This document shows, piece after piece, positions 16,290 to 56,937 of a stretch of DNA of 64,000 bases. Position 1 is the first letter of the stretch. The number at the start of each line of letters is the position of its first letter. The position numbers and the translations under genes were made by a program. The stretch lies in IMG/VR virus record IMGVR_UViG_3300028364_000013. One strand, given 5' to 3'. A model generated the notes under the pieces. The model saw nothing but the letters and a program-made list of their open reading frames with translations. It searched no databases and was not told the origin of the DNA. Origin of the DNA: a virus. Taxonomy: Duplodnaviria > Caudoviricetes.

Positions 16290-16364
16290 GTAGGTAGGAA
16301 ACTGATACGGGCATGACATTTCAAAAATGGCGGAAGAGTAGACTCCAACACGCCCTCTTTTTTT
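16290..16364 (+). ncRNA. candidate sRNA, GAGTAGACTCCA family (copy A)
   Basis: own pA, no ORF, GGGC...GCCC stem plus T-run. Confidence 0.55.
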
Positions 16365-16409
16365 AAAACTCTCCCTTGTAACTTTTTAAAACCTCATCGT
16401 TATACAGAT

Positions 16410-16622
16410 ATGAAACTAACGCAGACACCCAACGCAGAATTAAACGCTAAGGCAATGGATAATGCTTTGCCTGATGGAAATTACTTAACCTGCCCTAAGT
16501 GGGGATACAGTGAGCGTGAGGTGGTCATAAAGGATGGAATACTCTCTCTTGTAAATGACAGTGAACATAAGTTCACACAACATTGGTTTTTCAAAGTCAA
16601 TGATGTATTAAAGTCTTTGTAA
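16410..16622 (+). CDS. hypothetical protein (leaderless)
   Basis: ATG 5 nt after pA -10; stop inside next pA. Confidence 0.8.
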   Translation: MKLTQTPNAELNAKAMDNALPDGNYLTCPKWGYSEREVVIKDGILSLVNDSEHKFTQHWFFKVNDVLKSL

Positions 16623-16668
16623 CTTTTTAAAACTGTGTCGTTATACATACATAACCAACAAGACAATT

Positions 16669-17013
16669 ATGAAATTTTTATTTGGATTTAGCAACGGATG
16701 TTACTGGCTGATTATTAGAACCGCAGAGGAACTGGAATTTGCCCTGAAGCATATGAACATGACCAACAGAGCAATGGATGTTTATTTGGAGGCGTTGACA
16801 AACAATAAAGTAATTTACCTTAATGAAGCAGGCGGATACCATACTGGCAGAATTCAGAATACAGATAAAACTCAAATGATTGAGAAAGACGCTTCAAGAT
16901 TTCCAACGAAGATGGATAGGGTTGAGGTTTTGAAAGAGGAATTACTGGTAGAAATAAATGAACTGGAAGAGGCTTTAAATATGCCATTAACTAAAAAAAT
17001 TATACTGGACTAA
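16669..17013 (+). CDS. hypothetical protein
   Basis: after pA. Confidence 0.8.
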   Translation: MKFLFGFSNGCYWLIIRTAEELEFALKHMNMTNRAMDVYLEALTNNKVIYLNEAGGYHTGRIQNTDKTQMIEKDASRFPTKMDRVEVLKEELLVEINELEEALNMPLTKKIILD

Positions 17014-17342
17014 TGGAAGATATTTTAAACATATTAAAAGAACTTTTGATAGGGTTAGAGTTCAATGATAGGACTAATTATATTGTTGTATGCAAATTCA
17101 GCATGAGCAATGTTAGAGCGTGGGAAAGAGATGGGTTACCAGCCTCAATGAAAGGTGAGAAGCCAGACCAAGTAATTTACCTGATGCCAGAGATTTCTCA
17201 CAGACTTAACCAGAAGGAGCAGGTGTATAATTCAGCAAAAGCTCTGGAAGAACTTATGGGCTTGGGATACAAAGTGGATGTGTGCGCTACAAAGAATGAT
17301 TTTATTATGGGAGATGACAATTTTATAACTCTCCCTTTGTAA
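17013..17342 (+). CDS. hypothetical protein
   Basis: coupled; stop inside next pA. Confidence 0.75.
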   Translation: MEDILNILKELLIGLEFNDRTNYIVVCKFSMSNVRAWERDGLPASMKGEKPDQVIYLMPEISHRLNQKEQVYNSAKALEELMGLGYKVDVCATKNDFIMGDDNFITLPL

Positions 17343-17370
17343 CTTTTTAAACCTGAATCGTTATACAGAT

Positions 17371-17688
17371 ATGAAAACAGCAAAGAAAGATTTACAAGAG
17401 TGGGCAAAAGCAACCATAGCCGCAAAGGTTCAGGAGCTTGAGGCTGCAATGAGATTCATTCTAAGAAACCAGCAGTATGACGGATTCTTTGATGCTGATG
17501 ACGACAAGAACGAAGGTAGAGGCAGACAGGGAAGGGTGTATATTGAGATGGACGGTGAAACGCCTGTGTTATATGTCAACTGGGATGAGGTTTACGCTAT
17601 TAATGAGCAGGAGGCGTTATTTGAAGAACTTTTTGAAGGTGATTTCTCCAGCAACAAAGTAGTTAGAATTACAGGCGTGAAATTATGA
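17371..17688 (+). CDS. hypothetical protein (leaderless)
   Basis: ATG 5 nt after pA -10. Confidence 0.8.
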   Translation: MKTAKKDLQEWAKATIAAKVQELEAAMRFILRNQQYDGFFDADDDKNEGRGRQGRVYIEMDGETPVLYVNWDEVYAINEQEALFEELFEGDFSSNKVVRITGVKL

Positions 17689-17954
17689 ACAGGGCTTGGA
17701 TAGTATTCACCATTGATGACCAGCAGGTGTACCAGATAGAGTACAGGGGATGTACTGGACAGGATGTGATTGACGGATACAAAACCATGATTGCTGGTGA
17801 ATACAGGATACAGGAGTCGGATGTTCAGGTAAGTTTTAAGGATGACCTGAAGCAAGACCAGAAGACCGTCCTGAAGACAAAAGAAAAAATTACCAGCTCG
17901 GAGCTGGTCAGGGATACCTTAGAGATGTTAGTCCAGAAGGTGAACCAGAACTAA
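17685..17954 (+). CDS. hypothetical protein
   Basis: ATGA overlap. Confidence 0.75.
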   Translation: MNRAWIVFTIDDQQVYQIEYRGCTGQDVIDGYKTMIAGEYRIQESDVQVSFKDDLKQDQKTVLKTKEKITSSELVRDTLEMLVQKVNQN

Positions 17955-18086
17955 AAATATTATTGTTTGTTATATGTTACAATGTTACAAATAGAGAAGG
18001 CAGGGAGTTGTTACCCTGCCTTTTCGCATTTCTGTAACTTTTTAAAATGTCATCGTTATATAGATATAACCAATAAAACAAAAAAT

Positions 18087-18275
18087 ATGTCAAATCAAGA
18101 AGTAATAAAAAAAGTAGAAAAAGAATTACCAGAATTCGTAAAAGCCTGTTCTGGAGATGAAGGAACAATTTTATTAACTCAAGAAGCTTTTGCAAACGAA
18201 GAAGCTGAGTTATTAGGTATTGCAATTAAGTATGCTGGTATTAAAAACAAAGAAATAATGATAATACCAGCTTAG
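18087..18275 (+). CDS. hypothetical protein
   Basis: after pA. Confidence 0.75.
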   Translation: MSNQEVIKKVEKELPEFVKACSGDEGTILLTQEAFANEEAELLGIAIKYAGIKNKEIMIIPA

Positions 18276-18377
18276 TATTTCTTGAATATACGATAATTAA
18301 GAGGGCTTATGTCCTCTTTTTTAGTTTGTAACTTTTTAAACATTCATCGTTATATAGATGTAACCAAAACAAAAGAC

Positions 18378-18560
18378 ATGACAAATCCAGTACAACAAGG
18401 CTCTCAAATTAAATTTTATGGAACTGATTACACAGTAGATTCAGTTGGTTCAGCAAAGAATGATGAGATTATGGATGCCGTTGTGGTGACAATGGGCAAC
18501 GGAGTTCAAAAGACTTTGTGGTGGACGGATAGAGAAGGGTGTACAGTAGTTAAGTTTTAA
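18378..18560 (+). CDS. hypothetical protein
   Basis: after pA. Confidence 0.75.
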   Translation: MTNPVQQGSQIKFYGTDYTVDSVGSAKNDEIMDAVVVTMGNGVQKTLWWTDREGCTVVKF

Positions 18561-18592
18561 TTGTAACTTTTTAAAACCTCATCGTTATACTG

Positions 18593-18789
18593 CTGTAACA
18601 GATGGTTGTATGAGTAGTTTCTGAATTAAAAACTAAAGAAATTGGAAGAAGAACAAGAGAAATTAAGAGATGAATTTGAGAAAAAGACCTATAATAAATG
18701 TTGGTCTGAACCTCATTTTAATGATGTATTATTTAGCGATAGGTATGTTAAATGGTTGGAGGAGCAATTACTTATACAACGTGTTAGCA
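18593..18789 (+). mobile_element. attC-like long palindromic element
   Basis: CTGTAAC ... GTTGTATGAGTAG / TTACTTATACAAC ... GTTAGCA. Confidence 0.5.
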
Positions 18790-18835
18790 ATAGCGAAGCG
18801 TAGTTTTAATGTGTGACAACATAAAAACAACAGAA

Positions 18836-19021
18836 ATGAAAAGAATAATTTTTAGCGGATTAGATAAGTACATTTTTTCAAACATAGAGGACGGTATGTT
18901 AATTGAAAAGAATGGTCAAGAAGTTGGGGTGTATCCAGGATTTGAAGTTGGCGAAAATTTGGAGGGTGATTATTTGATTGAATTGGCTGAAGAATTTGAA
19001 GAAGACCTTGAAGAGGATTAA
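18836..19021 (+). CDS. hypothetical acidic protein
   Basis: ORF. Confidence 0.7.
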   Translation: MKRIIFSGLDKYIFSNIEDGMLIEKNGQEVGVYPGFEVGENLEGDYLIELAEEFEEDLEED

Positions 19022-19238
19022 ATTGTAACTTTTTAAAATACAGTCGTTATACAGATAAGAACCAATAAAATAAAGAAGCCATGAAAAAAAGATTCTGATA
19101 CAGCAAAGTCTGAACTTCCAAAAAACAGAGATTAACAACTGCAAGAGCAGACCTGATTTTTCCTAATCATAACTCGTCCTCACAAGGGGCGGGAAAAACG
19201 TGATTTGTAACTTTTTGAAATCGTATCGTTATACAAAT

Positions 19239-19289
19239 AGGAAACGGGCCTGGCTTTATAAGTCGGAAGAGTAGACTCCAACCTGCCTT
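19239..19289 (+). ncRNA. candidate sRNA, GAGTAGACTCCA family (copy B)
   Basis: own pA; CTGGCTT-TAT-AAGTCGG hairpin plus GAAGAGTAGACTCCAACCTGCC. Confidence 0.6.
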
Positions 19290-19372
19290 ATATTTTCCTT
19301 GTTCGTCATGACGAATGAAATTGTAACTTTTTGAATTACTATCGTTATATGCTTGTAACCAATACAAAAGAC

Positions 19373-19588
19373 ATGGAAATTAAGAAAGAAAACATCCGTT
19401 CAATACGTGCATTAAGAAGTGCAAAGGGCGGACGTGACTTGACACCTGTATTTAAAGGAGAAATGTTTCCTGTGTTTGTTCACGTTACAACAGAAGAGTT
19501 TGAAGGCGTTAGAGGTAATGACGAGTCAATGAAAGATTTAGCCATTCAAAAAATAAATTCACCTTCATTTGTTCCAAGTAGATTGTAA
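19373..19588 (+). CDS. hypothetical protein
   Basis: after pA; stop inside next pA. Confidence 0.75.
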   Translation: MEIKKENIRSIRALRSAKGGRDLTPVFKGEMFPVFVHVTTEEFEGVRGNDESMKDLAIQKINSPSFVPSRL

Positions 19589-19635
19589 CTTTTTAAATTA
19601 ATTTCGTTATACAGATATAACCAAACAAAAAAGAT

Positions 19636-20013: not shown

Positions 20014-20067
20014 TTGTAACTTTTTAAATTCCTATCGTTATACCTATGTAACCAATACATAAAGACA

Positions 20068-20328: not shown

Positions 20329-20384
20329 TTGTAACTTTTTAAATTACTGTCGTTATACAGATATAACCAAATAAAAATAAAATT

Positions 20385-20660: not shown

Positions 20661-20719
20661 TTTGTAACTTTTTAAATTCGTGTCGTTATACCTATGTAAC
20701 CAATAAACAAAAGGAAATT

Positions 20720-21037: not shown

Positions 21038-21122
21038 AACAAAAGCCCTCAATTAGTTTGGGGGCTTTTTTGTAACTTTTTAAATATTCATCGTTATACT
21101 TATGTAACCAAAACATAACAAG

Positions 21123-26586: not shown

Positions 26587-27090
26587 ATGAGAAAATTTGA
26601 ACATGAGGGCTGGGTTCTTGAGATTACCACGCCAACAACCATTGTAGTAACCAAACTCGGAGAGAGTAGAGAATACGATGTGAGAACAATTGTAGAAGCA
26701 AACCATGATGAGGGCGTGGAAGATTATGTGTACCTTACTCACGAGGACAATTCTTTTACGCAAGTTAAATTTGAAGATGAAGACTTCTTGGTCATAGATT
26801 TATTTGATGTAGATGGAGAATTTATTGATTCAATTGGAAGTCACGTATTTGGAGAAGGGGTGAAGATGAATAAGCCAACAAAAGAGAGAATTAAGAGATT
26901 TAGAGAAGACTGGGGGCAAAGTCATGAGGAAATTTGCAGCTGTCTGGGATATGACGAAGAGGATTCTGATGACATGATTATGGGAGATGACTACTTCTGG
27001 GATGAAGCCGCTGAACTATGGTGCAACAAAAGCGCCTCTGGCCTTCAAGGAGATGACCAAGAAGTTGCTGATTATTTGAGAGCTTTGTAA
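26587..27090 (+). CDS. hypothetical acidic protein
   Basis: after pA; stop inside next pA. Confidence 0.8.
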   Translation: MRKFEHEGWVLEITTPTTIVVTKLGESREYDVRTIVEANHDEGVEDYVYLTHEDNSFTQVKFEDEDFLVIDLFDVDGEFIDSIGSHVFGEGVKMNKPTKERIKRFREDWGQSHEEICSCLGYDEEDSDDMIMGDDYFWDEAAELWCNKSASGLQGDDQEVADYLRAL

Positions 27091-27139
27091 CTTTTTAAAT
27101 ACTCATCGTTATACACTTGTAACCAAAAAACACATAGAC

Positions 27140-27436
27140 ATGAGCGTATTGACAAGAGAAGAGTTGACAGCGGAATTAGAAGGAATGTTTCCAAAAATGT
27201 TACTAAGAACAACAGAACAGTTTGACGGAGCAGAGGGAGGCATATGGACTTCTGGAGAGGACGGGATTGATGGTCCTATTATGAACCACCTGCCTTTATT
27301 CAACTACTACTCACAAGACGGTGGAAGCAACTACTACACATTCGGAGTGAACAACAAGTTTTATGAGTTCCTTGAAGAGCGTGGATGGTATGCAGAGTTC
27401 AACGACCCTGGAACCGTAATGTTATGGGAGGCGTAA
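27140..27436 (+). CDS. hypothetical protein
   Basis: after pA. Confidence 0.8.
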   Translation: MSVLTREELTAELEGMFPKMLLRTTEQFDGAEGGIWTSGEDGIDGPIMNHLPLFNYYSQDGGSNYYTFGVNNKFYEFLEERGWYAEFNDPGTVMLWEA

Positions 27437-27584
27437 GCCTTTTGTAACTTTTTGAAATCCTATCGTTATATATTTAGAACCAAAGGCGAACTGATTTAAG
27501 ATGCTGCAACGGTATTGGTACGATTCCCTTAACCTCGTATCTATCCAGTAAGATGCTGGCGTGACTCAACACAAAAAATAAATT

Positions 27585-27797
27585 ATGACACCAAAAGAAA
27601 AAGCAAACGAATTAGGTAACAAATTTTACCAAGGGAGTGTATTTGATTATGATAAACAAGGACACTTAAAGGAGATTGAAAGAGCAAAAGAACGCACAAA
27701 AATTTGTGTACAAGCTATATTAGATGCAGTTACAACAATAGCAGATAAAAAGTTTGATTACTACACAGAGGTAATGAAAGAGATTGATAACCTCTAA
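27585..27797 (+). CDS. hypothetical protein
   Basis: MTPKEKANEL start; followed by attC-like site. Confidence 0.75.
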   Translation: MTPKEKANELGNKFYQGSVFDYDKQGHLKEIERAKERTKICVQAILDAVTTIADKKFDYYTEVMKEIDNL

Positions 27798-27801
27798 TGT
27801 T

Positions 27802-27926
27802 TGCTAACGGTTTGTACAAGAATATGAGTAGTAGCGGTAAAAAGCAAGATAACCCTTTCGGATGGTCAACAATGCTAATAACCTGCAAAAGATGGTTTAA
27901 AAACCAAGTGAAGCTATTGCTCATTC
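27802..27926 (+). mobile_element. truncated attC-like element
   Basis: TGCTAAC plus GAATATGAGTAGTAGC / GCTATTGCTCATTC arms; no GTT right core. Confidence 0.45.
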
Positions 27927-27994
27927 TTTTTTAAAAATACGCTTCGATTACCACTTGATATTCTAAAAATACTTTTATATATTGTCTACACGAA

Positions 27995-28086
27995 GGAGAG
28001 GTAGCTCAGAGAGTTCTGTAAAAGAATCAGGTAGAGCAGCGGCGCTGAACACCCGTGTGTCGCAAGTTCGAATCTTGCTCTCTCCA
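27995..28086 (+). tRNA. tRNA-Phe(GAA)-like with about 20-nt D-loop insertion
   Basis: GGAGAGG/TCTCTCC acceptor, GCTC/GAGC D stem, loop CTGAACA, GTGTC variable region, GCAAG-TTCGAAT-CTTGC T arm. Confidence 0.7.
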
Positions 28087-28089
28087 CTA

Positions 28090-28137
28090 AAAAAGACTCA
28101 CTTAGATTTTTAATCAATTTATAAGTGAGTCTTTTTA
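28090..28137. terminator. intrinsic terminator
   Basis: AAAAAGACTCACTTA ... TAAGTGAGTCTTTTT. Confidence 0.75.
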
Positions 28138-28152
28138 TTTTTCATACTATTT

Positions 28153-28683
28153 ATGATGAAAAATAAAGACAGAGAAAAAGATATTATTCGATTATATACC
28201 GAAGAAGGAGAAACTTGTACTAATATTTCTAAGATTGTAAAAATACAAAGAAAAAATGTATACCTAATTCTTGAAAGAAATGGGGTTCAACTAAGGAAGT
28301 CTGTAAATATAAAATGTTCAATCTGTAGAAGAGAAATAACTAACAATTCAAGAAAAAGAACAAAATGCGGTACTTGTATGACTAAGGTTAGAAGGTATAT
28401 TGAAAGAAAAACATCTGTTGAATATCTTGGAAATAAATGTAAAAGATGCGACTGGTCTGGTGATATATCTGGATTTGATTTTCACCACAGAGTTTCAGAA
28501 GAAAAAAGTTTTGGAATTAGTGCTCTAACAGTTGCAAATAAAACATGGAAACTTGTTAAGCAGGAGCTTGATAAATGTGATTTACTTTGCGCTTTGTGTC
28601 ATCGACTTGAACATTCAGATTATCAAAATGAAAATTTAATTAAAGAATCAAAAAATTATAGTGGAATTTTATTCAAAGAGTAA
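28153..28683 (+). CDS. HNH homing endonuclease with N-terminal HTH and zinc finger
   Basis: CKRC...FDFHH...ELDKCDLLCALCHRLEH. Confidence 0.85.
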   Translation: MMKNKDREKDIIRLYTEEGETCTNISKIVKIQRKNVYLILERNGVQLRKSVNIKCSICRREITNNSRKRTKCGTCMTKVRRYIERKTSVEYLGNKCKRCDWSGDISGFDFHHRVSEEKSFGISALTVANKTWKLVKQELDKCDLLCALCHRLEHSDYQNENLIKESKNYSGILFKE

Positions 28684-29659: not shown

Positions 29660-29837
29660 GAAATTGTAACTTTTTAAATTACCATCGTTATACAAACAAG
29701 AATAGCAAACGAGCCATTCAAAAAGTACAAATCTGAAATAATAAACTGACCTAAAGAGTGGTCACAACGAAATTTGTAACTTTTTGATAACTCATCGTTA
29801 TATAAATGAACCAATAAATTAATTAAAACCCAAAAGA

Positions 29838-31290: not shown

Positions 31291-31326
31291 ATTTGTAACT
31301 TTTTGAAAACCTATCGTTATACAAAT

Positions 31327-31377
31327 GTCCGATAGGTTTTCTTTTTTACCTATCGTAAGAGTAATCCACTCCTGCCC
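31327..31377 (+). ncRNA. candidate sRNA, AATCCAC-CCTGCC subfamily (copy F)
   Basis: own pA; CGATAGGT/ACCTATCG hairpin plus AAGAGTAATCCACTCCTGCCC. Confidence 0.55.
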
Positions 31378-31463
31378 GAAAGTCTGGTGCTATCATCATG
31401 ACGAATGGAATTGTAACTTTTTGAATTCATATCGTTATATAGGTATAACCAAATAAAAACATT

Positions 31464-37082: not shown

Positions 37083-37159
37083 TATTTTTATTATAAATAG
37101 ATAAAAAATATAAAATCGAACCCCAATTTCACAATTAAGTTTATAGGGCTATTAACTTG

Positions 37160-37233
37160 CACTCCGTATCGGATTCAAACCGATGGTCTTCTCATAGAAA
37201 GTGAGACGTGTTGGGTCGCTACACTAACGGAGC
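37160..37233 (-). tRNA. tRNA-Glu(TTC), atypical
   Basis: cloverleaf; anticodon loop CTTTCTA (U37), T loop TTTGAAT, D loop lacks GG. Confidence 0.8.
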
Positions 37234-37236
37234 GTT

Positions 37237-37321
37237 TGGTCTTGCGTATCGGATTCGAACCGATGAACCTTTCGGGCTGCCTTGAAAGGGCAGTTACTTT
37301 GAGCCGCTTGTATAACGCAAG
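37237..37321 (-). tRNA. tRNA with TTC anticodon and long variable arm
   Basis: CTTGCGT/ACGCAAG, A73, encoded CCA, CTGCC-CTTTCAA-GGCAG, variable CCCGAAAGGTTC. Confidence 0.8.
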
Positions 37322-37496
37322 AAATATAAGCACAAAAAAAGAGGATAACACTTGTGCTATCCTCTTGACTACGATTTTGCGATTTAAAAATCCCTCAATC
37401 TGGTTTGTTAACTTAGAGCATAGCGAAGTAGTGGAGTCTCCTCCAAACGTTCACTGTTCTCTATGTTTACAAATCTTTTCATTTTCTTATTTTTTG

Positions 37497-37569
37497 TTGC
37501 GCAGGCCAGACTCGAACTGACGACCTCAAGATTATGAGCCTTGCGAGCTACCAACTGCTCCACCGCACT
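37497..37569 (-). tRNA. tRNA-Met(CAT), initiator-like
   Basis: TGGAGCAGTTGGTAGCTCG D arm, CTCATAA loop, 1:72 mismatch; lacks the three G:C anticodon-stem pairs. Confidence 0.85.
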
Positions 37570-42839: not shown

Positions 42840-42910
42840 GCCTACAAGCCTCCGTAACAGGGGGCTTTTTTGTGCTTTGTAACTTTTTGAATTCCTATCG
42901 TTATACACAT

Positions 42911-42963
42911 GGAGACGGGCACGACATTCAAAAATGGCGGAAGAGTAGACTCCAACCTGCCTT
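42911..42963 (+). ncRNA. candidate sRNA, GAGTAGACTCCA family (copy C)
   Basis: own pA; near-identical to copy A. Confidence 0.6.
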
Positions 42964-43060
42964 AAACTTTTTTGACCTATATTTTATTGTTTTAGGCGTT
43001 TTGTAACTTTTTGAATTGCCATCGTTATATAGTCATAACCAATAAAAAAACATTAAGACA

Positions 43061-47623: not shown

Positions 47624-48721
47624 ATGAAAGATATATTAATAAAATTTAAAAAGGTTCATGGTGAATTGTATGATTATTCATACGTAGATTATAAAGACAG
47701 ATTAACTAAAGTAGCTATAGGGTGTAAAGTTCATGGTGAATTCCTTCAAACTACAGCAGCCCACATTAGTGGCCAAGGTTGTCCAGAGTGTGGTAAAATT
47801 AAAAGAAGGATAGGGAAGAGAATTACTTTTGATGACTTCCTGATAAGAGCTAAAGATAAACATGGAAACAAATTTTCTTATAATAAAGAATCTTATGTTG
47901 ATATAGAAAAAGCTTTTGTTATTGTATGCCCTAATCATGGTGAGTTTACACAGTCTCCCAAAACTCATATAAAGAGTCACGGTTGTCCAAGATGTGGAAA
48001 CAACTCTGCATCACACAAACTCTCCCTTACTCGTCAAGAGTTTGTAGATAAAACTATCAGCGTTCATGGTGACAAATTCATTTATGATAAAGTCAAATAT
48101 ATCAACAATAGAACTCCTATTATTATAACTTGTAAGTTTCATGGAGATTTTAATCAAAAACCTAATTATCATTTATCTGGAAATGGTTGTCCTAAATGTG
48201 GAGGCACCTCTAAACTTTCTCTTGAAGGCTTTATAGATAGGAGTAATTTGATTCACGATTTTAAATATGATTACTCTAAATCAGAATTAATCAATAGCAA
48301 AAAAAAAGTTAAAATAATTTGCTTAAAGCATGGAGAATTTATGCAATCTCCCTCTCACCATATGATGGGCTCAGGATGCCCAACATGTAATGAGTCTAAA
48401 GGAGAAAAGTTGGTTGCAAAAATTCTTAAAGAAAAAAGCGTTAACTTTGTAAGACAAAAGAGATTTAAATATTGCAAAAATAAAGCAGTTCTCCCTTTTG
48501 ATTTTTATTTACCAGACTTAAATGTTTTGATTGAATTTGATGGTGCGCAGCATTTTTATCCTTGGAGATTAAAAGATACAGAAGTTGCAAAATTAAAACT
48601 TAAGAAGACACAAGAAAATGACCTTATCAAGACTGAATTTTGTAAAAAAAATGAAATTAAATTATTAAGAATTCGTTTTGATGAGAATGTTAAAAATAAA
48701 TTAGATAAACTATTAAAATGA
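47624..48721 (+). CDS. homing-endonuclease-like protein: tandem C-x2-HG zinc-finger repeats (DUF723-like) plus C-terminal PD-(D/E)xK/DUF559-like nuclease
   Basis: four C..HGEF.Q....H..G.GCP.C repeats; PFDFYLPDLNVLIEFDGAQH. Confidence 0.8.
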   Translation: MKDILIKFKKVHGELYDYSYVDYKDRLTKVAIGCKVHGEFLQTTAAHISGQGCPECGKIKRRIGKRITFDDFLIRAKDKHGNKFSYNKESYVDIEKAFVIVCPNHGEFTQSPKTHIKSHGCPRCGNNSASHKLSLTRQEFVDKTISVHGDKFIYDKVKYINNRTPIIITCKFHGDFNQKPNYHLSGNGCPKCGGTSKLSLEGFIDRSNLIHDFKYDYSKSELINSKKKVKIICLKHGEFMQSPSHHMMGSGCPTCNESKGEKLVAKILKEKSVNFVRQKRFKYCKNKAVLPFDFYLPDLNVLIEFDGAQHFYPWRLKDTEVAKLKLKKTQENDLIKTEFCKKNEIKLLRIRFDENVKNKLDKLLK

Positions 48722-49695
48722 AGCCAGGCCAAAACATAATTAAACAAATAGAAGACGGGAATTTCAATTTAAGTTCGCATCCAGTTTTTAGTCATAATCC
48801 AAAAAGATTAATGGATATTGGTTTTAATAAATCTCTTGAGTTAATTAAAAGAAGAGTTGGAGACCACAATCTCTCCCCAGTATATTTATTTAATTTATAT
48901 AAAACGTATCAATTTAAAATAGATATTATTGAGAGTAGCATTAAATCAGAGCTTGAACAAATAGCGGAAGATACAATTAGAGAAATGTATGATGTACCAG
49001 AAGATATAAATATTAAACCAAAGATTGTTAATCAAGATGATATTGAATATGATTTTGACTCTGAAAATGAAAAAATAGAAGTCTCCCCAGAAAGACTAAG
49101 ATTAATAAAAGAAGAAGCAAATAAAAGAATAATACTAAATTCTATTGTTCATGGTTCATCTGTTATGATTTGGTCAAGCGCATATTATATTGTAAAAGAA
49201 AAACTTGATGAATTAAATAATAAATTAATTGAACTATATGATATTTATTCTGCAGTTGTTAGTTATTTACTTTGGCTTCAGGAACCAAGTCAAGATTTGT
49301 CTGGAGTAGAAAAACAAGGAGTTTGTGAAATTGATTTTGAAGATGGATTAAGTTGTGAAGGAATAAATTTTCCAGTACTTTTATTGGAGACAAATAAAGT
49401 GGTGATTGATTATCTTATTTGTAAAGGTATACCAACCGATTTTAGTGAAGAAGAGTTAAAATTATATTATGCTCTTTCAGATGATTATAATCAAGAAATT
49501 TGGCATAATACATTGTCTCCAGTTATATATTCTGATTTTTTAGAAACAATAGAAATAGAATCAAATAAATTACCTGATGTAATATCAAAATTATCTCAAC
49601 TAAATTATGAAGAATTAAAAACTGTGTTCATATCTATACAACAAGATTCAAAAGAATCAGGAAAAATAGAACTTTTAAAATTTAAAATCGTATAA
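48718..49695 (+). CDS. hypothetical protein
   Basis: 325 aa ORF; stop is the TAA of a class B promoter. Confidence 0.85.
   Translation: MKPGQNIIKQIEDGNFNLSSHPVFSHNPKRLMDIGFNKSLELIKRRVGDHNLSPVYLFNLYKTYQFKIDIIESSIKSELEQIAEDTIREMYDVPEDINIKPKIVNQDDIEYDFDSENEKIEVSPERLRLIKEEANKRIILNSIVHGSSVMIWSSAYYIVKEKLDELNNKLIELYDIYSAVVSYLLWLQEPSQDLSGVEKQGVCEIDFEDGLSCEGINFPVLLLETNKVVIDYLICKGIPTDFSEEELKLYYALSDDYNQEIWHNTLSPVIYSDFLETIEIESNKLPDVISKLSQLNYEELKTVFISIQQDSKESGKIELLKFKIV
49667..49695 (+). promoter_or_regulatory. class B promoter upstream of the RadA-like/sigma region
   Basis: TAGAAC-N16-CGTATAA. Confidence 0.65.
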
Positions 49696-51069: not shown

Positions 51070-51711
51070 ATGACAAACGTAAAGAAAGATTCAGAACAAG
51101 CTACTAAAGATAAAGCAAACGTAGCAGTGCTTCAAGATATTAATGCCACAGCAAGAGCAAAAGATGATGCTTTTAGTAAGCTGTATGGTAGACACAACCA
51201 ACAAGTCCGCATTCACTTCCTCAAGAGATTGAGAGATACAGATGTTGCTGAGGATTTGCTTATGATAACTTTTGTAAAGGCGCATGAGAACATTAACACT
51301 TATGACCCAAAAGTGGGTGCATTTTCTACTTGGTTGTACAAGATTGCAAACAACTCTTTGATTGACTTGTTGAGAAAAGCAAAGTTCGAAGTTCTTTCTT
51401 TGGATTCGCTTCAAAGTAAGACGTCAGACGACAATGATGGAATGGAATTTCAATTAGATTCAGATACTCCAAACCCATTGCAAATTCTTGTTCATGATGA
51501 GGTAACAAAACAAGTTTCTGATGCAGTTAATTCTATTAAGTCCAAAAAAGTTCGTGAATTAATGATTTGCAGATACATTGATGAAATGAGTTTTGAAGAA
51601 ACGGCAAAGGCTCTTGGTCTTGAATTGAATTCAACACTTAGAACAGCTGTTGCAAGAGGTAAAGAGATTCTTAAAAAGAAATTAGCTAACCTTGAAAATA
51701 ATGTCTCATAA
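51070..51711 (+). CDS. RNA polymerase ECF sigma factor (sigma70 group 4, SigW/RpoE-like)
   Basis: region 2 VAEDLL...FSTWLYKIANNSLIDLLRK; region 4 RYIDEMSFEETAKALG...RGKEILKKKL; lacks regions 1.1 and 3. Confidence 0.92.
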   Translation: MTNVKKDSEQATKDKANVAVLQDINATARAKDDAFSKLYGRHNQQVRIHFLKRLRDTDVAEDLLMITFVKAHENINTYDPKVGAFSTWLYKIANNSLIDLLRKAKFEVLSLDSLQSKTSDDNDGMEFQLDSDTPNPLQILVHDEVTKQVSDAVNSIKSKKVRELMICRYIDEMSFEETAKALGLELNSTLRTAVARGKEILKKKLANLENNVS

Positions 51712-51942
51712 CATAAAACCAACGGTCTTATGACCGACCCCATACTACTGGGATGTGATAGTGTAGTGACTATTGTCTGGAAGTAGTGTTATGATAAAAA
51801 GCTATTAGTTCGGTGAATGAAGCAAAGCGTTAGCGCCAATAGTTTAAGTGCCCCGTGGTTATGATACACCACGGGGTTTTTTGTGCGTTGCCCCGAACGA
51901 GCGCAGCGTTGTAACTTTTTAAATATCCATCGTTATACAAAT

Positions 51943-52022
51943 AAGAAAAGGGCCTGGCGGAGAAAGTCGGAAGAGTAGACTCCAACGTGCGTTGGATTTT
52001 GTGAACAAGCTCCAACCTGCCC
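51943..52022 (+). ncRNA. candidate sRNA, GAGTAGACTCCA family (copy D)
   Basis: own pA; second CTCCAACCTGCCC at about 52010. Confidence 0.55.
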
Positions 52023-52105
52023 AATACTCTCGTGAAATATAAATTTATAATTTTAGAAAAATAAAGCCCGTTATTAACATATCGCCTAAAAAAGATTGTT
52101 TTAGG

Positions 52106-52134
52106 TAGAACATTTTAAAATCTCTTACGTATAA
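52106..52134 (+). promoter_or_regulatory. class B ECF-like promoter
   Basis: TAGAAC-N16-CGTATAA. Confidence 0.7.
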
Positions 52135-52280
52135 GATAATGAAAGAACAAATAGATTTATATTTTTTACACTTTGTAACATTTTGTAACATTTTGTAACT
52201 TTTTAAATCTATGTCGTTATACAGTCATAACCAATGACCGCAGGGCAAGACCTGCTTTGCAGTCGCAAAAAACAATTATT

Positions 52281-53156
52281 ATGAAAAATGAAAATGCATT
52301 TAACTGGGACATTAAGCAAACAGGAATTCTTGACATTAATGGAAACCCTATAAAAGGGTACAAAGAAATTACTCGTGATGACAATGGGTCAAGCATTGCT
52401 GTTATGAAAGAGTCTTATACGCCAATGACAACTCAACAATTCTCTGATACAGCAAACGAAGTTGCAGGTGCAATTGGAGGTTCTGGACTTATTTTTAAGG
52501 ATTGGAATGACAATAGTGTTGAAGGGCAAATGGGAGCTAACAAGCCCGTGATTACTTGTCAGATGGAAATGAGCGAGCCTCTTGAGATTGCAGGCTCAAA
52601 GATTGAAGGTAAGTTAACAATTGGTGTTGGATTTGACGGAGGGCGTAGCTTCTTTATTGGTCACACAAATACTTACCTTAGATGCACAAATGAATTCTCT
52701 TCAATTGTGAAGGACTTCAAAAGCAGACTTACTGTAAATAACATGGTAAGAGTTGAAGACATTATTAAAAACATTCAAACGTATAGAGATTACGAAAGAA
52801 ATTTATACGAAAACTTTGAGAGATTTCATAACACAAAAATTGATGAAAAGATTGTTCAAGAATGTCTTGCACGTCTTGTTGATTTGACTGTTGAAGAGAG
52901 AGCAATGACTGTTAAGGAGAGAAACACAGAGTTGTCTTCTCAAAAGTTGAACAAGATTGATGACATTACTGCAAGTATTAGAACAGAAATGGCAGAGCTT
53001 GGTAACAACGCTTGGGGATTATTCAATGGGGTCACACATTATTCTACACATATTATGAACTCAAGAGGTTCAAATGAGTTGAGTACAATGTTCGGAGCAA
53101 AGAACAAAGCAAACCAAATTGTTTATGGCTTAGGTCTTGAATTACTTGATGCATAA
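52281..53156 (+). CDS. DUF932-family phage/plasmid protein
   Basis: FDG....GHTNTYLRCTN and NAWGLFNGVTHY motifs. Confidence 0.75.
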   Translation: MKNENAFNWDIKQTGILDINGNPIKGYKEITRDDNGSSIAVMKESYTPMTTQQFSDTANEVAGAIGGSGLIFKDWNDNSVEGQMGANKPVITCQMEMSEPLEIAGSKIEGKLTIGVGFDGGRSFFIGHTNTYLRCTNEFSSIVKDFKSRLTVNNMVRVEDIIKNIQTYRDYERNLYENFERFHNTKIDEKIVQECLARLVDLTVEERAMTVKERNTELSSQKLNKIDDITASIRTEMAELGNNAWGLFNGVTHYSTHIMNSRGSNELSTMFGAKNKANQIVYGLGLELLDA

Positions 53157-53232
53157 GATGCTAAACAACAAACTTAAGGAGAGCAGAAATGTTCTCCTTT
53201 TTTTGTGACCAATTTTGTCTAAGGAAAGTTTA

Positions 53233-53321
53233 GGGCAGGGGTGGATTGCCTGTCAAGGCTGTGCTCTTGACTTTAAGGCACAGGGCACTTATTCTTACCT
53301 TGCCTGTTTCACTCAAGGGAC
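53233..53321 (-). ncRNA. candidate sRNA, AATCCAC-CCTGCC subfamily (copy H)
   Basis: own minus-strand pA; possible pseudoknot CTGTGC/GCACAG plus GTCAAG/CTTGAC. Confidence 0.5.
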
Positions 53322-53411
53322 ATAGTTATAACGATAATGGTTTAAAAAGTTACAACCGTTGGAATTCTGGTTTTTAATTCATATTTATCAGAAAATCTAA
53401 AACCAACAACC

Positions 53412-53657
53412 ATGAACCTAAAAGAAGCAAAACAATTGTTTGAAGAAATAGTAGAACTTTGTTACCAGACAGAAAATCAACAACTGATTGAAACCATTGA
53501 ACAAATTTATCCAGAAGTAGAAGAAGCAACAGCAGTTTTTAAAGTAATATCTTCAGCTGAAGAATTACAAGTTATCATAAACGAAATAGAATTCCTTCCT
53601 GAAGAAGAAGAGGATGTCCAGGAGCTGCAGGAGATAATCGAAAAGTTGTCAGAATAA
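53412..53657 (+). CDS. hypothetical very acidic protein
   Basis: ORF after ATATTTAT motif. Confidence 0.8.
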   Translation: MNLKEAKQLFEEIVELCYQTENQQLIETIEQIYPEVEEATAVFKVISSAEELQVIINEIEFLPEEEEDVQELQEIIEKLSE

Positions 53658-53714
53658 CATAAATAATTTTTATTTGTAAAAGTCTTTGCGTATCTTTGTG
53701 CAAAGACTTTTTTT

Positions 53715-54284
53715 ATGCACAGAGGAATTATCATATACTTATCAATCCTGATAGGCTTAGCTCTTACAGCTGGGGGTAGCTATTTTATTATTGACAACCT
53801 AATAAAACCACAGGGGTTTATGTTCGAAGGAATCATGGCAGCAGGCCTGGGAATAACATTGCTTATGTCAGTAATCGTTGCCGCAACAATCGGAAAGGCA
53901 ATTATGCTGTTCGGTGAAATCCTGGAGCAGACAACAAAGCTAAATCAGGAAATTGTAAAACAAAGCCAGCCGCAATCCATATCCAGTATATTTCAGGGAA
54001 TGATGCCGCCAGGCTCAAACATGACTGTTACAAACCTGAACACAGGAGAAACATCATCCAATAAACCTGAACTGGGAAAAATGAGTGAGATGATTTTTAA
54101 CGCAATGGCTGCTGGCTTGAGCGGCAAGACAAATGTAGAACTTAAAGATATGAGTGTCAAGGAGTTAGAGAAACTCTTGGCAAAAGCTATTAAGGATGAT
54201 GACTATGAATCTGCAACAGAGATTAGTGCAATCCTGAAGGAGAAGAAGAATCCTGGTTCAGGTGACTCTGAAAATAATTCATAA
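53715..54284 (+). CDS. membrane protein with C-terminal UVR motif
   Basis: 2 TM; ELEKLLAKAIKDDDYESATEI. Confidence 0.7.
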   Translation: MHRGIIIYLSILIGLALTAGGSYFIIDNLIKPQGFMFEGIMAAGLGITLLMSVIVAATIGKAIMLFGEILEQTTKLNQEIVKQSQPQSISSIFQGMMPPGSNMTVTNLNTGETSSNKPELGKMSEMIFNAMAAGLSGKTNVELKDMSVKELEKLLAKAIKDDDYESATEISAILKEKKNPGSGDSENNS

Positions 54285-54288
54285 AAAA

Positions 54289-54317
54289 TAGAACATTCTA
54301 AATTTATAAACGTATAA
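54289..54317 (+). promoter_or_regulatory. class B ECF-like promoter
   Basis: TAGAAC-N16-CGTATAA. Confidence 0.7.
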
Positions 54318-54321
54318 GATA

Positions 54322-54455
54322 ATGTAGGCTGAAAGATACCTACATTCTAACGAGATTTCCTTTTGGAAGTTTTAGTTGTCTATCCTGAAGGTGGAATATC
54401 CTGACGGAATTGTCTCTTATCAGAAAAGCTCGGTTTTGTCACCGAGCTTTTCGCT
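54322..54455 (+). ncRNA. candidate pB-driven sRNA
   Basis: no ORF; ATGTAGG/CCTACAT hairpin; AAAAGCTCGG/CCGAGCTTTT terminator. Confidence 0.45.
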
Positions 54456-54554
54456 TTTATAGTAAGTTGCTTCGTTACGAACAACGAAGTTGCAAGCAAA
54501 GCGGAAAATGAATTTATTCATTGTAACTTTTTAAATTCCTGTCGTTATACAATC

Positions 54555-54767
54555 ATGGGAAACCCAAATTCAAAAAAACACAAAGCAAACCACGCAGGCT
54601 ACAGAGATAAGCCAGGGCGTAGAGCAATTGACGCACTTTGCGGAATGTACGCTGCAATTGGTAATGTAGAAATTCTGGTTGGAACGCCAGGAGAAGGAAA
54701 GCCGAGACTCGGAACTCCAGTAAACAAAACACAGCCAAAACCAGGTACACAGCTTAGTTTATTCTAA
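54555..54767 (+). CDS. small basic protein (leaderless)
   Basis: ATG 5 nt after pA -10. Confidence 0.7.
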   Translation: MGNPNSKKHKANHAGYRDKPGRRAIDALCGMYAAIGNVEILVGTPGEGKPRLGTPVNKTQPKPGTQLSLF

Positions 54768-54820
54768 ATTGTAACTTTTTAAATTGACATCGTTATACAC
54801 TTAAATTAAAAACAATTATT

Positions 54821-55324
54821 ATGAAAAAGTATTTATTAGTATTAGCATTAGCAGGATTGTTCACTTCAATTTCAAGTTGCAAGAAAGAAACAATTGAACC
54901 GAAACCTGAACCAGACACAACAGTTGTCACAACCAATGAACCAGTAGCAATGAACCTTCAGGTTTATTCTTTTGATGACGGCAATGGATTTGCAGGATAT
55001 GACTTCAAAGTTGTCATAAAAAGCCCAAATGAGTCCGTTGACTCTTTGTCTACAACATTCTCCAATTATTCTGATGGAGTTACTTCACCAAACTTTGCAA
55101 CACTTCAATGTAATGTAGATACCAGTCTCGTTTATACGATAGACATATATGATAATGCAAATAATTATTTGTTAACTGTTCCTTTAGAGTTTCATTGGGA
55201 AGATTATATTCTGGCAGTCAATGATGATGCAAGTAGTACAATTACTGGAGAAGTATTTAACCATGATAACATAGAAACACAAAACGCCTCACAGGCTCAT
55301 GTTGTTTTAGCTATTGGTAAGTAA
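54821..55324 (+). CDS. lipoprotein
   Basis: signal peptide with lipobox ISSC-KKE, Bacteroidota style. Confidence 0.8.
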   Translation: MKKYLLVLALAGLFTSISSCKKETIEPKPEPDTTVVTTNEPVAMNLQVYSFDDGNGFAGYDFKVVIKSPNESVDSLSTTFSNYSDGVTSPNFATLQCNVDTSLVYTIDIYDNANNYLLTVPLEFHWEDYILAVNDDASSTITGEVFNHDNIETQNASQAHVVLAIGK

Positions 55325-55422
55325 ACTTTGTAACTTTTTAAATTCCTGTCGTTATACAGATATAACATAACCTGCGTGAGATTGTTCATGCAGGTTTTTT
55401 AACCACATTAAAACTTAGAGAT

Positions 55423-55752
55423 ATGAAATTCGTTTACATTATTGAAATTGGACAGCTTAGCAAATTAGAGAACAAATTTAACTTCTATGACATGGAAGTG
55501 TTCCCAAGTCAAAAGGCAGCTGACCATGTTGTTAAAAATATGATTGAGTGTAATACCTCTGGAGATTTTGAAGAACTTGTTAAGCAAGGTGATGTTAGAA
55601 TTGAGAAGTCTGAAGAAGGCGGATTCAAGAGAGGTGAAGTTAGTCATACTGTTTATACTTACAATTGCATGGGGTCTGGATTCAATAACGTTCCTACCAA
55701 AATGACAGTGAGATACGTAGTTAGAAAAATGTTAGTAAACAGAAACTTTTAA
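55423..55752 (+). CDS. hypothetical protein
   Basis: after pA. Confidence 0.8.
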   Translation: MKFVYIIEIGQLSKLENKFNFYDMEVFPSQKAADHVVKNMIECNTSGDFEELVKQGDVRIEKSEEGGFKRGEVSHTVYTYNCMGSGFNNVPTKMTVRYVVRKMLVNRNF

Positions 55753-55756
55753 TATT

Positions 55757-55942
55757 ATGGCAGACGCAAGAACAAAACAAACAAGAGTGCTTACTATTAC
55801 AATAGAAGTCTCTTCAGATGTAAAACTTCCTTCAGACCATGAGATGGTCTTAATTGCTGCAGCAGCTTCAGGAGCTATGGCAGACAAAGCAAAAGAGAAA
55901 GGGTTGACGCTCGATAACTTAATAACTCATAGCAATGACTAA
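55757..55942 (+). CDS. hypothetical protein
   Basis: ORF. Confidence 0.7.
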   Translation: MADARTKQTRVLTITIEVSSDVKLPSDHEMVLIAAAASGAMADKAKEKGLTLDNLITHSND

Positions 55943-56270
55943 TTTATTCTGGATACAAAAATATAGACAACAAATTTTCGCTCTGGAGCTTCTGGTGGCG
56001 ATTATTTTTGGACCTGCTCTGGCAAACATCCTGAGCGGCTCCGTCCTGTTAAGCCTGGTAATGATTGCAGCAGTTTTTCTATTTTTAGAAATTACTCTGG
56101 CTTTTACCAGGGTCACCTTTGCGAAGGTAGCCCATGAGAATACCAAGAAGATTTATGATAAGACACAGGCAGCACACAAAAAGATTAAACAGGACTACCA
56201 GGATATGACTGGTGAGCAACTGGACAAGCGCAGGGCAATACAGCATTCAAAAAAGAAACGTAAGCCCTAA
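55935..56270 (+). CDS. hypothetical membrane protein
   Basis: 2 TM plus basic tail. Confidence 0.75.
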   Translation: MTNLFWIQKYRQQIFALELLVAIIFGPALANILSGSVLLSLVMIAAVFLFLEITLAFTRVTFAKVAHENTKKIYDKTQAAHKKIKQDYQDMTGEQLDKRRAIQHSKKKRKP

Positions 56271-56307
56271 GAAGGCAAAAACAATATAAACTAAAAAGAG
56301 ATTATCA

Positions 56308-56339
56308 TTTGGTAGTCTCTTTTTTAATCACTACATTTG
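56308..56339 (+). promoter_or_regulatory. Bacteroidota housekeeping-sigma promoter
   Basis: TTTG-N20-TACATTTG. Confidence 0.8.
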
Positions 56340-56361
56340 CTTACATAAAAATTAATTAGAG

Positions 56362-56598
56362 ATGAGACTTACAGTACACGTATCAGGCGCAAAGAAAGAC
56401 ACGCACGAAAAGAAGACCAAAGAAGGAATTGTTAATGTTAAAAAAACATTTAACACTCTATCGTTCTCAAGTGTGAACCCAGAAGATGTTGGAAGCATCC
56501 TAAACAAGATTAAAGCTGAAGGGCTTGGAGAGCCTACCAAGCATTACCTCTCTAACGAGAAGATTCCTGGTCACGCCAGAGGGAAAAGAAAAGCCTAA
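56362..56598 (+). CDS. small basic protein
   Basis: ORF after host-type promoter. Confidence 0.75.
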   Translation: MRLTVHVSGAKKDTHEKKTKEGIVNVKKTFNTLSFSSVNPEDVGSILNKIKAEGLGEPTKHYLSNEKIPGHARGKRKA

Positions 56599-56712
56599 AC
56601 CCTGAACACAAATATATGAAAACCTTCAGCTATGCTGGGGGTTTTTTTTTGTCCAGTCGGGACTGGTCAAATTCAGATTTGTAACTTTTTAAAAACACAT
56701 CGTTATACAAAT

Positions 56713-56780
56713 GTCGATGCGAACAGCGAGACGGGTCTGGTCACCGAGGTGAACCGAAAGAGTAGACTCCAGCCTGCCTT
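56713..56780 (+). ncRNA. candidate sRNA, GAGTAGACTCCA family (copy E)
   Basis: own pA; hairpin GGTCAC-CGAG-GTG-A-ACC replaces the copy B hairpin. Confidence 0.6.
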
Positions 56781-56865
56781 ATATTTTCTTGCCAACCATT
56801 TTGTAAGCGAATCGGAAAAAGATTTTATTCTTTGTAACTTTTTAAATTCTTATCGTTATACAAGT

Positions 56866-56937
56866 GTAGACAATGAGAGACACATCTACTACCCCAGAAC
56901 TGAAAAACTTATGGCAGGGTTAATCCACTCCTGCCCC
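56866..56937 (+). ncRNA. candidate sRNA, AATCCAC-CCTGCC subfamily (copy G)
   Basis: own pA; GGCAGG-GTTAATCCACT-CCTGCC stem-loop. Confidence 0.5.

Follow-up and report, generated by a model that had tools for sequence, protein, structure and literature searches.

CsrB/RsmZ, 6S RNA and CrcZ are titrating RNAs, which either carry several repeats of a motif in each molecule or mimic an open promoter. The ToxI antitoxin RNAs (type III) are about 36-50 nucleotides (nt) long, bind protein and are possibly pseudoknotted; they are encoded as tandem repeats directly 5' of the toxin gene and are excised by the toxin, and phage mimics of them can serve as counter-defence. The PeSL elements of T4-type phages consist of a terminator hairpin followed by the promoter of the next gene, with no invariant unpaired core. 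Here we describe a family of small RNAs, called F1, in a 64,000-nt stretch of phage DNA (the window), which is the minus strand of bases 32279-96278 in the 142,155-bp virus record IMGVR_UViG_3300028364_000013. FopS/GibS of Bacteroides thetaiotaomicron resembles F1 in belonging to Bacteroidota and in having dispersed paralogous copies with their own canonical promoters, a short stretch that is conserved next to parts that vary, and a 3' end rich in U, and FopS also occurs in phage (PMC11697453). The Racrs resemble F1 as small phage non-coding RNAs with their own promoter, a hairpin and a handle. They are protein decoys found among counter-defence genes (PMC10651486), and the same setting is proposed below for F1.

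Anatomy and distribution of the F1 RNAs

Five of eight promoter-driven units in the window are very likely separate genes for a single, previously undescribed family of small RNAs that is confined to phages of Bacteroidota. A first-pass annotation of the window had placed all eight in a single family of units without an open reading frame (ORF), with a variable 5' hairpin and a conserved 3' handle. Each of the eight does have its own promoter, the 27-mer GTAACTTTTTNANNNNNNATCGTTATA, immediately 5' of it. The hairpins quoted in the annotation are present in the sequence as given, and its two motifs have exact matches, AGAGTAGACTCCA at 16335, 19268, 42942, 51972 and 56759, and AATCCACYCCTGCCC at 31363 (+), 53233 (-) and 56922 (+). 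The eight units do not form one family, however. The five GGG-hairpin-AGAGTAGACTCC units are called F1 and the three AATCCAC (AATCCACYCCTGCCC) units F2. A covariance model made from six copies of the same length was run on the window unfiltered, with E values as high as 10 allowed. It gave exactly five matches, of 29-70 bits, all of them GGG...AGAGTAGACTCC units, and zero matches to the three AATCCAC units. A variable hairpin with a conserved handle is a correct description of F1. The five GGG-hairpin-AGAGUAGACUCC units, which combine the lack of an Rfam match with recurrent copies and covariation, also bear out the idea of an undescribed RNA that phages carry in multiple copies. The absence of ORFs holds in part: same-strand frames in the units are short and unconserved, but the unit at 31295 has a frame of at least 29 codons.

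The F1 RNA is predicted to be about 45-60 nt long, and each gene would be transcribed from its own strong promoter. At the 5' end there would be a short leader, followed in most copies by GGG. Next would come P2, a hairpin whose sequence and length are free, and then a linker rich in purines that leads to the invariant core (A)GUAGACUCC. The core would be followed by three bases that vary, CURC, CC, and in most cases a U-run. P2 is closed by a covarying Y-R pair. CURC could pair with GUAG of the core and form a 4-bp hairpin (P3) that presents ACUCCNNN.

The covariation that had been suspected in the hairpin was upheld by the alignment of 49 distinct homologues to the model. The closing pair of P2 is C-G in 34 copies and U-A in 13, with none unpaired, and double changes number 14, 18, and 16 at three of the inner pairs. 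In P2, 95.0% of the cells are paired compared to 80.6% in shuffles, and the covariation score is 0.373 compared to 0.176 in shuffles; neither value is reached by any of 500 shuffles. When the 3' partner is slid by 1-3 columns, the pairing falls from 95% to 25-68%. Without any alignment, the segment that lies between GGG and AAGAG has C/G as its first and last base in 32 of 51 copies, U/A in 14, and U/G in 1. A hairpin of at least 4 bp is found in 42 of 47 such segments (43 distinct sequences, mean z -2.3).

Several observations weigh against parts of this anatomy. The core seems to be invariant over 13-17 nt when copies are gathered with an exact-word seed, but an exact-match seed inflates the invariance, and diverged copies cut the invariant part to 9-10 nt, (A)GUAGACUCC. 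The sequence before GUAG has diverged to UAGAG, GGAGAG, GAGAAG, and AGAGGG in copies from contigs G414 and G413 and from Tenacibaculum phage Larrie, one of these diverged copies having GUAAAC. The three bases 3' of CUCC are AAC in 42 copies and AGC, GAC, and GUC in 3 each, with others besides. The four bases that follow this triplet are CUAC (26) or CUGC (12) in most copies and can pair with GUAG. However, the P3 pair U29-R42 changes on one side only (U-A 32, U-G 16), and about nine copies, with tails ACGC or ACGU, are unable to form P3. A closing stem that would join the 5' GGG to the tail at the 3' end was rejected as weak and not specific to the copy, with cognate pairs (-3.26 kcal/mol) no better than permuted ones (-3.29 kcal/mol). 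The fold drawn here for the conserved part is therefore tentative. An H-type pseudoknot made of GGG/CUCC and GUAG/CURC is sterically reasonable, and its stems never vary. Single-sequence folds are not unusually stable (z +0.6 to -1.4).

A subclass of copies in the 206-kb contig G002 (for example L010:5220-5258 and 6578-6616) has 5' ACGUG in place of GGG. Its hairpin is CUAC-GAGA-GUAG, the 3' half of which nearly repeats AAGAGUAG of the core. The tail CACGUC pairs with the 5' end, and the upstream CUAC could pair with either GUAG.

F1 is found in phages that are otherwise nearly unrelated. The exact 17-mer RAAGAGTAGACTCCARC occurs at 52 IMG/VR loci, of which six (on five contigs) are chance matches within coding sequence and were set aside; the remainder come from about 35 contigs of 4-348 kb. 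Carriers that were searched whole have 2-10 copies: there are 4-9 model matches in each of five contigs of 58-233 kb, 9 in the 53-kb contig G414, 10 core sites in G002, and two copies in the cultured phage Larrie (ON950054.1), at 18784-18834 and 19417-19466. Apart from Larrie these carriers are contigs of uncultured phages. A promoter motif lies no more than 90 nt upstream in 46 of 54 unique copies, and a U-run no more than 40 nt downstream in 30 of the 54. Almost every copy is a predicted separate transcription unit, in which promoter, RNA, and usually a U-run are followed by the promoter of the next gene. These counts, together with an invariant core of 9-13 nt outside the covarying hairpin, distinguish F1 from a simple intrinsic terminator. 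The type of promoter varies with the carrier. It is GTAAC-N16-CGTT here and TAnnTTTG with an upstream TTTG in most relatives, while a few jumbo contigs have neither motif and apparently use a third type, so the same RNA is driven by at least two promoter types. In Larrie both copies are oriented against every neighbouring gene, and in other contigs copies occur on both strands, which excludes a role as leader, attenuator, or cis-antiterminator at least in Larrie. The carriers have almost no proteins in common, yet the core is identical among them. Since the shared proteins are only 22-52% identical (33-41% for the SprT-like protein), the constraint on the core is stronger than co-evolution with shared phage proteins would give.

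Searches for relatives and targets, and possible functions

No known RNA family accounts for F1. At the gathering score, Rfam 15 finds two tRNAs only in the whole window, and with E up to 5-10 none of its models, including those for ribozymes, riboswitches, CRISPR repeats, and Bacteroidota small RNAs, overlaps any of the units. ARAGORN and RF00005 find no tRNA in the eight units and have matches only at 37159-37569 (-). No description of the F1 family was found in the literature on structured RNAs of phages and Bacteroidota and on DUF932. The first-pass annotation had itself named a known family, a simple terminator class, and a lack of covariation as outcomes that would speak against it; all three were examined and none applies to F1.

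In the genomes searched, no host copy or CRISPR repeat resembling F1 was found. The covariance model, at E<=1e-4, has 0 carriers among 151 Bacteroidota genomes, the hosts of the phages being unidentified. A 15-mer pattern gave six single matches in 401 genomes, no more than its reversed control, and three copies on one contig that is phage-like (27 kb, 25% GC, dense small ORFs). Five further genomes have marginal matches only. A 14-mer scan of a prokaryote genome collection gave only chance matches among the matches listed.

An antisense RNA against a conserved host RNA is unlikely, because duplexes with rRNA, tmRNA (transfer-messenger RNA), RNase P RNA, and signal recognition particle (SRP) RNA are in the range of shuffles and the 11-mer GAGTAGACTCC is not enriched. 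The best duplex with 16S or 23S rRNA (-14.9 kcal/mol) is equalled or beaten by 22 of 30 shuffled cores, and a 9-nt match in one 23S rRNA is missing from a second 23S rRNA. Complementarity to tmRNA, RNase P RNA, and SRP RNA was compared in five genomes. The 11-mer has 19 matches on either strand of 121 Bacteroidota genomes compared to 66 for its reversed control. No sense transcript of the phage itself contained a complement of the core. A near-complementarity between the core and the tRNA T-arm (10/12) was discarded, as chance alone would give roughly 0.4 of them in the sequence that was searched (an estimate). Taken by itself, GAGTAGACTCC with its complement is about three times rarer than the reversed control, which avoidance of TAG-containing words may explain. 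The guide-like RNA suggested in the first-pass annotation is disfavoured, since the part that varies pairs with itself as a hairpin, and no conserved counterpart of the core or of its complement turned up in the searched host genomes.

We tentatively propose, as the most economical reading, that F1 RNA is a high-dose decoy whose target is a host protein, be it an RNA-binding factor, a nuclease, or a defence effector; this is possible rather than probable. The RNA would be made early and at high dose from 2-10 gene copies and would act in trans as a protein ligand or decoy. A conserved factor would recognise the invariant core beside P2, the most plausible candidates being an RNA-binding protein of the host, a nuclease, or a defence effector, and the RNA would titrate or redirect this factor by a means other than antisense pairing. 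Multiple copies and strong promoters suggest a stoichiometric role, and the position among early accessory genes (SprT-like, DUF932, ParB-like) fits host takeover or counter-defence. The RNA is predicted to be separately transcribed, is structured, phage-only, and multicopy, has a core under far stronger constraint than any shared phage protein, and is without a conserved complement or homologue in the hosts searched, all of which points to a trans-acting, dose-dependent RNA that is read by a conserved protein. Three considerations weigh against the decoy. It is reached mainly by elimination of alternatives and is held with low confidence; seed pairing of 7-9 nt with mRNAs is possible, being compatible with the searches made; and aptamers and ribozymes, too, are marked by an invariant core between helices of free sequence. 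It is unlikely that F1 is a new counter-defence or takeover RNA with an activity of its own, for example a compact pseudoknotted aptamer, produced in bulk, for a host immune signalling nucleotide or a decoy that disarms a Bacteroidota-wide RNA-recognising protein of defence or housekeeping, with (A)GUAGACUCC as the active or recognition site.

The main alternatives to a decoy for a host factor place the partner of the RNA in an mRNA or in a phage protein. A base-pairing small RNA like FopS/GibS, in which the core would be a seed that represses host or phage mRNAs near their starts, is doubtful. The promoter of each copy, the conserved exposed stretch, the U-rich 3' end, and the many paralogous copies fit this explanation, and FopS has 14 copies with canonical promoters and a seed (PMC11697453). 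However, an identical core in phages of marine and freshwater hosts would need an identical target, and the searches described above found no enriched 11-nt match in either sense, no complementarity to the four kinds of host RNA above shuffles, and no sense-strand target in the phage's own genome. The seed of FopS is single-stranded at the 5' end and is followed by a terminator hairpin, whereas F1 opens with a structured hairpin, and half of its core may lie in a stem; the units also lack an Rfam match. Somewhat less likely still is that the RNA is a cofactor, substrate, or regulator of a shared phage protein, which could be the SprT-like protein, the DUF932 protein, the 157-aa protein with its neighbouring nucleotidyltransferase, or the 325-aa protein. 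All ORFs of this genome were compared with five contigs, in full or in large part, and only a handful have homologues there (Table 1). The SprT-like gene, present in all five, is the commonest conserved neighbour of F1 in otherwise unrelated phages and lies less than 900 nt from a copy in 6 of 9 loci. In each of the four contigs with DUF932, an F1 copy adjoins the gene or copies flank it, and the 157-aa protein is 43-48% identical in four of five contigs. A PolyA_pol/CCA-type enzyme and a second nucleotidyltransferase are also encoded by the phage. The region also has a ParB-like gene and therefore resembles an early or accessory module that the phages share. With contigs that are 15-64% complete, though, the co-occurrence counts are weak, and the orientation of the SprT-like gene and its fellows to the copies varies (divergent, upstream, downstream), so there is no operon. 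The SprT-like gene was rejected as an obligate partner because the complete genome of Maribacter phage Panino has the gene and no copy of the RNA. The modest identity of these proteins, 22-52%, also contrasts with the invariant core of the RNA.

Other alternatives attribute the function to the RNA alone, to the DNA, or to mimicry of tRNA. It is quite improbable that the RNA has an intrinsic activity, either as an aptamer that sequesters a small molecule such as an immune signalling nucleotide or as a small ribozyme that cleaves itself. A core of 9-13 nt is indeed invariant and the GGG conserved beside helices of free sequence, the H-type pseudoknot can be drawn with a connecting loop fixed at 3 nt but varying in sequence (AAC, AGC, GAC, GUC, ACC, GUU), and a high copy number would suit a stoichiometric sponge. 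Nevertheless none of the models for known ribozymes and riboswitches gives a match with E up to 5-10, and the single-sequence folds have the ordinary stability noted above. The invariant stems of the pseudoknot offer no covariation, GUG variants of GGG would break one of them, and self-cleavage would be of no evident use to a unit that already has a promoter and a terminator. We consider it very unlikely that the copies are mainly DNA-level or punctuation elements such as cassette boundaries (a promoter plus stem-loop, as in PeSL), protein-binding sites, or a special class of terminator. They do occur every 2-23 kb or so across a 20-45-kb region of small early genes and adjoin genes common to unrelated phages, they contain the near-palindrome GAGT-AG-ACTC, and most end in a U-run. 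The compensatory changes that keep P2 paired argue instead for a single-stranded transcript, and the copies have a promoter of the phage's own type that is always oriented in the same way to the motif. Divergence has affected the flanks and P2 but spared the core, which indicates selection and not recent copy-and-paste, and a terminator does not need an invariant unpaired 10-mer. The chance is slight indeed that the RNAs, especially the three F2 units, are tRNA-derived or tRNA-like mini-RNAs that act as decoys for tRNA-recognising enzymes or defence nucleases. The F2 15-mer is identical to the 3' end (T-stem and acceptor 3' strand) of tRNA-Tyr genes in several viral contigs, the unit at 56834 has a minihelix-like end, the phage encodes a CCA-adding-type enzyme and tRNAs, and tRNA-Tyr is, in at least some published accounts, a known defence target. 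On the other hand, neither ARAGORN nor the Rfam tRNA model finds anything in the eight units, and the rest of the tRNA is missing. The idea of a tRNA-Tyr decoy was rejected because the three Bacteroidota tRNA-Tyr genes that were recovered end differently, in AAUCCU...CCCCA. None of the F1 copies lies in a tRNA cluster, and the base 3' of CUCC is A or G, leaving no fixed CCA.

The promoter array, the units of the window, and neighbouring genes

The window contains a large array of near-identical promoters that probably depend on a sigma factor of the phage. The virus record has a GC content of about 35%, the DNA sequencing runs that contain the window sequence are lake and salt-lake metagenomes, with no RNA run listed among them, and 8 kb of the window gave zero BLAST matches to GenBank phages. 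The promoter GTAACTTTTTNANNNNNNATCGTTATA occurs 74 times between 13024 and 56860, compared to 0.03 expected by chance, with 71 sites on the plus strand and 3 on the minus strand. It forms a 44-kb block with almost one promoter per small gene, and the rest of the virus genome has zero additional copies. Its form, GTAAC-N16-CGTT, is nearly the same at all 74 sites. AAC...CGT has the look of promoters of the extracytoplasmic function (ECF) type, and the window encodes an ECF-like sigma factor with regions 2 and 4 (Table 1). These two features suggest that this protein is probably the reader of all 74 sites, including the promoters of the eight units. Several genes of the block start no more than about 10 nt from the promoter, and leaderless translation is conceivable. 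The tRNA genes inside the plus-strand block lie behind a TAnnTTTG box of the host type; this box and the relatives of the phage point to a Bacteroidota host. ARAGORN also calls a third tRNA, an 85-nt 'tRNA-Glu' at 37237-37321, for which the Rfam tRNA model gives no support.

Table 1. Coordinates of the F1 genes, the F2 units, and other features of the virus genome
Feature	Position in window	Strand	Details
SprT-like metalloprotease	15594-16172	+	in 5/5 contigs, 33-41% identity
F1 copy 1	16258-16371	+	promoter 16258-16284; RNA core match 16307-16357; 29.1 bits, E 5.6e-08
F1 copy 2	19207-19304	+	promoter 19207-19233; RNA 19244-19290; 69.9 bits
F2 unit a	31295-31400	+	promoter 31295-31321; fold z -2.79
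tRNA-Met and tRNA-Glu genes	37159-37569	-	host-type TAnnTTTG box
F1 copy 3	42879-42978	+	promoter 42879-42905; RNA 42915-42964; 47.8 bits
325-aa protein	48718-49695		in 5/5 contigs, 22-27% identity
Sigma-70 family (ECF-like) phage sigma factor	51070-51711	+	Sigma70_r2 1.1e-14, Sigma70_r4_2 0.001
F1 copy 4	51911-52030	+	promoter 51911-51937; RNA 51948-51994; 65.3 bits
DUF932 protein	52257-53156	+	in 2/5 contigs plus the phage-like contig, ~24% identity
F2 unit b	53205-53353	-	promoter 53353-53327; ~110-nt body; 3' module 53247-53233, then UAAAC
F1 copy 5	56681-56795	+	promoter 56681-56707; RNA 56731-56781; 44.2 bits
F2 unit c	56834-56950	+	promoter 56834-56860
Thymidylate synthase	outside window		in 5/5 contigs, 24-40% identity
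157-aa protein	outside window		in 4/5 contigs, 43-48% identity
Nucleotidyltransferase	outside window		in 3/5 contigs, 30-37% identity

The five F1 copies of the window share the same parts in different sequence. Copy 1, which lies 135 nt 3' of the SprT-like gene, consists of GGGC, the hairpin GACAUUU/AAAUGGC, GAAGAGUAGACUCCAAC, ACGCCC, and U7, and its hairpin is nearly identical to that of copy 3. Copy 2 has GGGC, CUGGCUU-UAU-AAGUCGG, AAGAGUAGACUCCAAC, CUGCC, and UUAUAUUUU, and copy 5 has GGGU...CCGA with the closing pair U-A and the core AAAGAGUAGACUCCAGC. Copy 4 is located between the sigma gene and the DUF932 gene. It has a 3' extension (51995-52030) that contains an added hairpin, GUUGGA...UCCAAC, and a second CUCCAACCUGCCC. 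A copy on contig G413 (L407:19067-19150) is extended in the same manner. In both cases the added hairpin is followed by a second (C)UCCAACCU(G/A)C and then by a U-rich tail, and it looks as if the 3' module had been duplicated.

The F2 units are lineage-specific small-RNA candidates and possibly diverged relatives of F1. Their common part is only a 3' module of about 20 nt, (U/C)AAUCCACYCCUGCCC-N-AAA(C/G), while the bodies cannot be aligned and differ in length. Unit a has an 8-bp hairpin, CGAUAGGU/ACCUAUCG, then UAAGAGUAAUCCACUCCUGCCC, and is a hybrid, with AAGAGUA as in F1 and the 3' module of F2; the order is hairpin, UAAGAGUA as in F1, and F2 module. The frame in this unit begins with an ATG at 31325, 4 nt 3' of the promoter, passes through the RNA-like hairpin, and exits the unit; by eye it has about 43 codons and crosses the next promoter. 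Unit b converges on the DUF932 gene, and this minus-strand unit, with its putative H-type pseudoknot, has a fold z of -1.64. The minihelix-like end of unit c is a 3' hairpin, GGCAGG-GUUAAUCCACU-CCUGCC, followed by CCAAACUUUUUU. F2 and the F1 copies of the window have only the 3' module CCUGCC-Y-N-AAAC in common. These F1 copies end in CCUGCC-Y-N-A-W-A-Y and in this resemble the F2 units, suggesting that F1 and F2 share a 3' end in this lineage. A wider search for the F2 module found one true relative, an 88-kb contig with an extended module and 18 promoters of the same ECF type, plus one GC-rich chance match. The F2 units and this relative have GCAG...CUGC at the place corresponding to GUAG/CURC of F1, which would be a compensatory change from U-A to C-G if F2 and F1 are homologous.

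A ninth ORF-less unit that extends from promoter to promoter, at 29666-29775 (110 nt), was absent from the first-pass annotation. It has the hairpin GACC-UAAAGAGU-GGUC and belongs to neither motif set.

Outside the window the virus genome (G000:C1) encodes further enzymes. They include translation initiation factor IF3, a PARP-type ADP-ribosyltransferase, nicotinate phosphoribosyltransferase, the PolyA_pol/CCA-adding-type enzyme, and the second nucleotidyltransferase; the coordinates of these five jointly are 137024-137569, 27020-28297, 107334-108599, 109892-111304, and 113106-114431. The second nucleotidyltransferase adjoins the 157-aa protein that is conserved in otherwise unrelated phages. 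Sequence searches of the PDB gave one marginal match only for the 157-aa protein (E 0.14) and nothing at E up to 0.1 for the 441-aa nucleotidyltransferase, and an Atlas search with the 157-aa protein found only unnamed viral clusters. The thymidylate synthase gene (116429-118825) is split in two ORFs, with Pfam residues 1-139 at 118247-118825 and residues 140-266 at 116429-117118. A 284-aa ORF (117359-118213) lies between the halves, and the arrangement looks like an intron or intein with a homing endonuclease.

Significance and comparison with known systems

Phages of Bacteroidota are abundant in oceans, lakes, and guts, and their early takeover biology is almost unknown. The core of F1 is kept letter for letter in nearly unrelated phages, in up to ten copies and behind any type of promoter, suggesting that the RNA must meet a strong and common need of infection. 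Its partner, once identified, might expose a vulnerability that is conserved in Bacteroidota cells, or bring to light a new kind of counter-defence based on RNA. The cultured phage Larrie, with its two copies, makes the question directly testable. At the least F1 is a well-supported new RNA family for the catalogues.

F1 differs from each of the described systems that it resembles. FopS is a chromosomal family that pairs with susC-type mRNAs and binds RbpB (PMC11697453). In contrast, F1 was found only on phage DNA, begins with GGG and a covarying hairpin, and has a core without a conserved complement in the searched hosts. No Rfam model matched F1; FopS is deposited in Rfam according to its description (PMC11697453), its presence in the copy searched being unconfirmed. 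A Racr is defined by its mimicry of host CRISPR repeats (PMC10651486), while F1 has no repeat-like counterpart in the 151 genomes searched with the model or the 401 searched with the pattern, and no CRISPR direct-repeat model overlaps the units. In addition, the F1 core is identical across phages of different hosts, whereas repeats differ between CRISPR systems.

The remaining systems differ from F1 in how the motif is arranged. The proposed sequestration of a protein is shared with CsrB/RsmZ, 6S RNA, and CrcZ, but F1 would achieve it with one motif per RNA and many genes. Like ToxI, the F1 RNA is short and possibly pseudoknotted, but its copies are single, lie 2-23 kb apart, have their own promoters, and stand beside varied genes. 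The PeSL elements resemble F1 as short repeated units of promoter and hairpin that flank exchanged genes in a region of small early genes. In F1, however, the promoter comes first, and it is the transcribed part that carries the conservation and the covariation.

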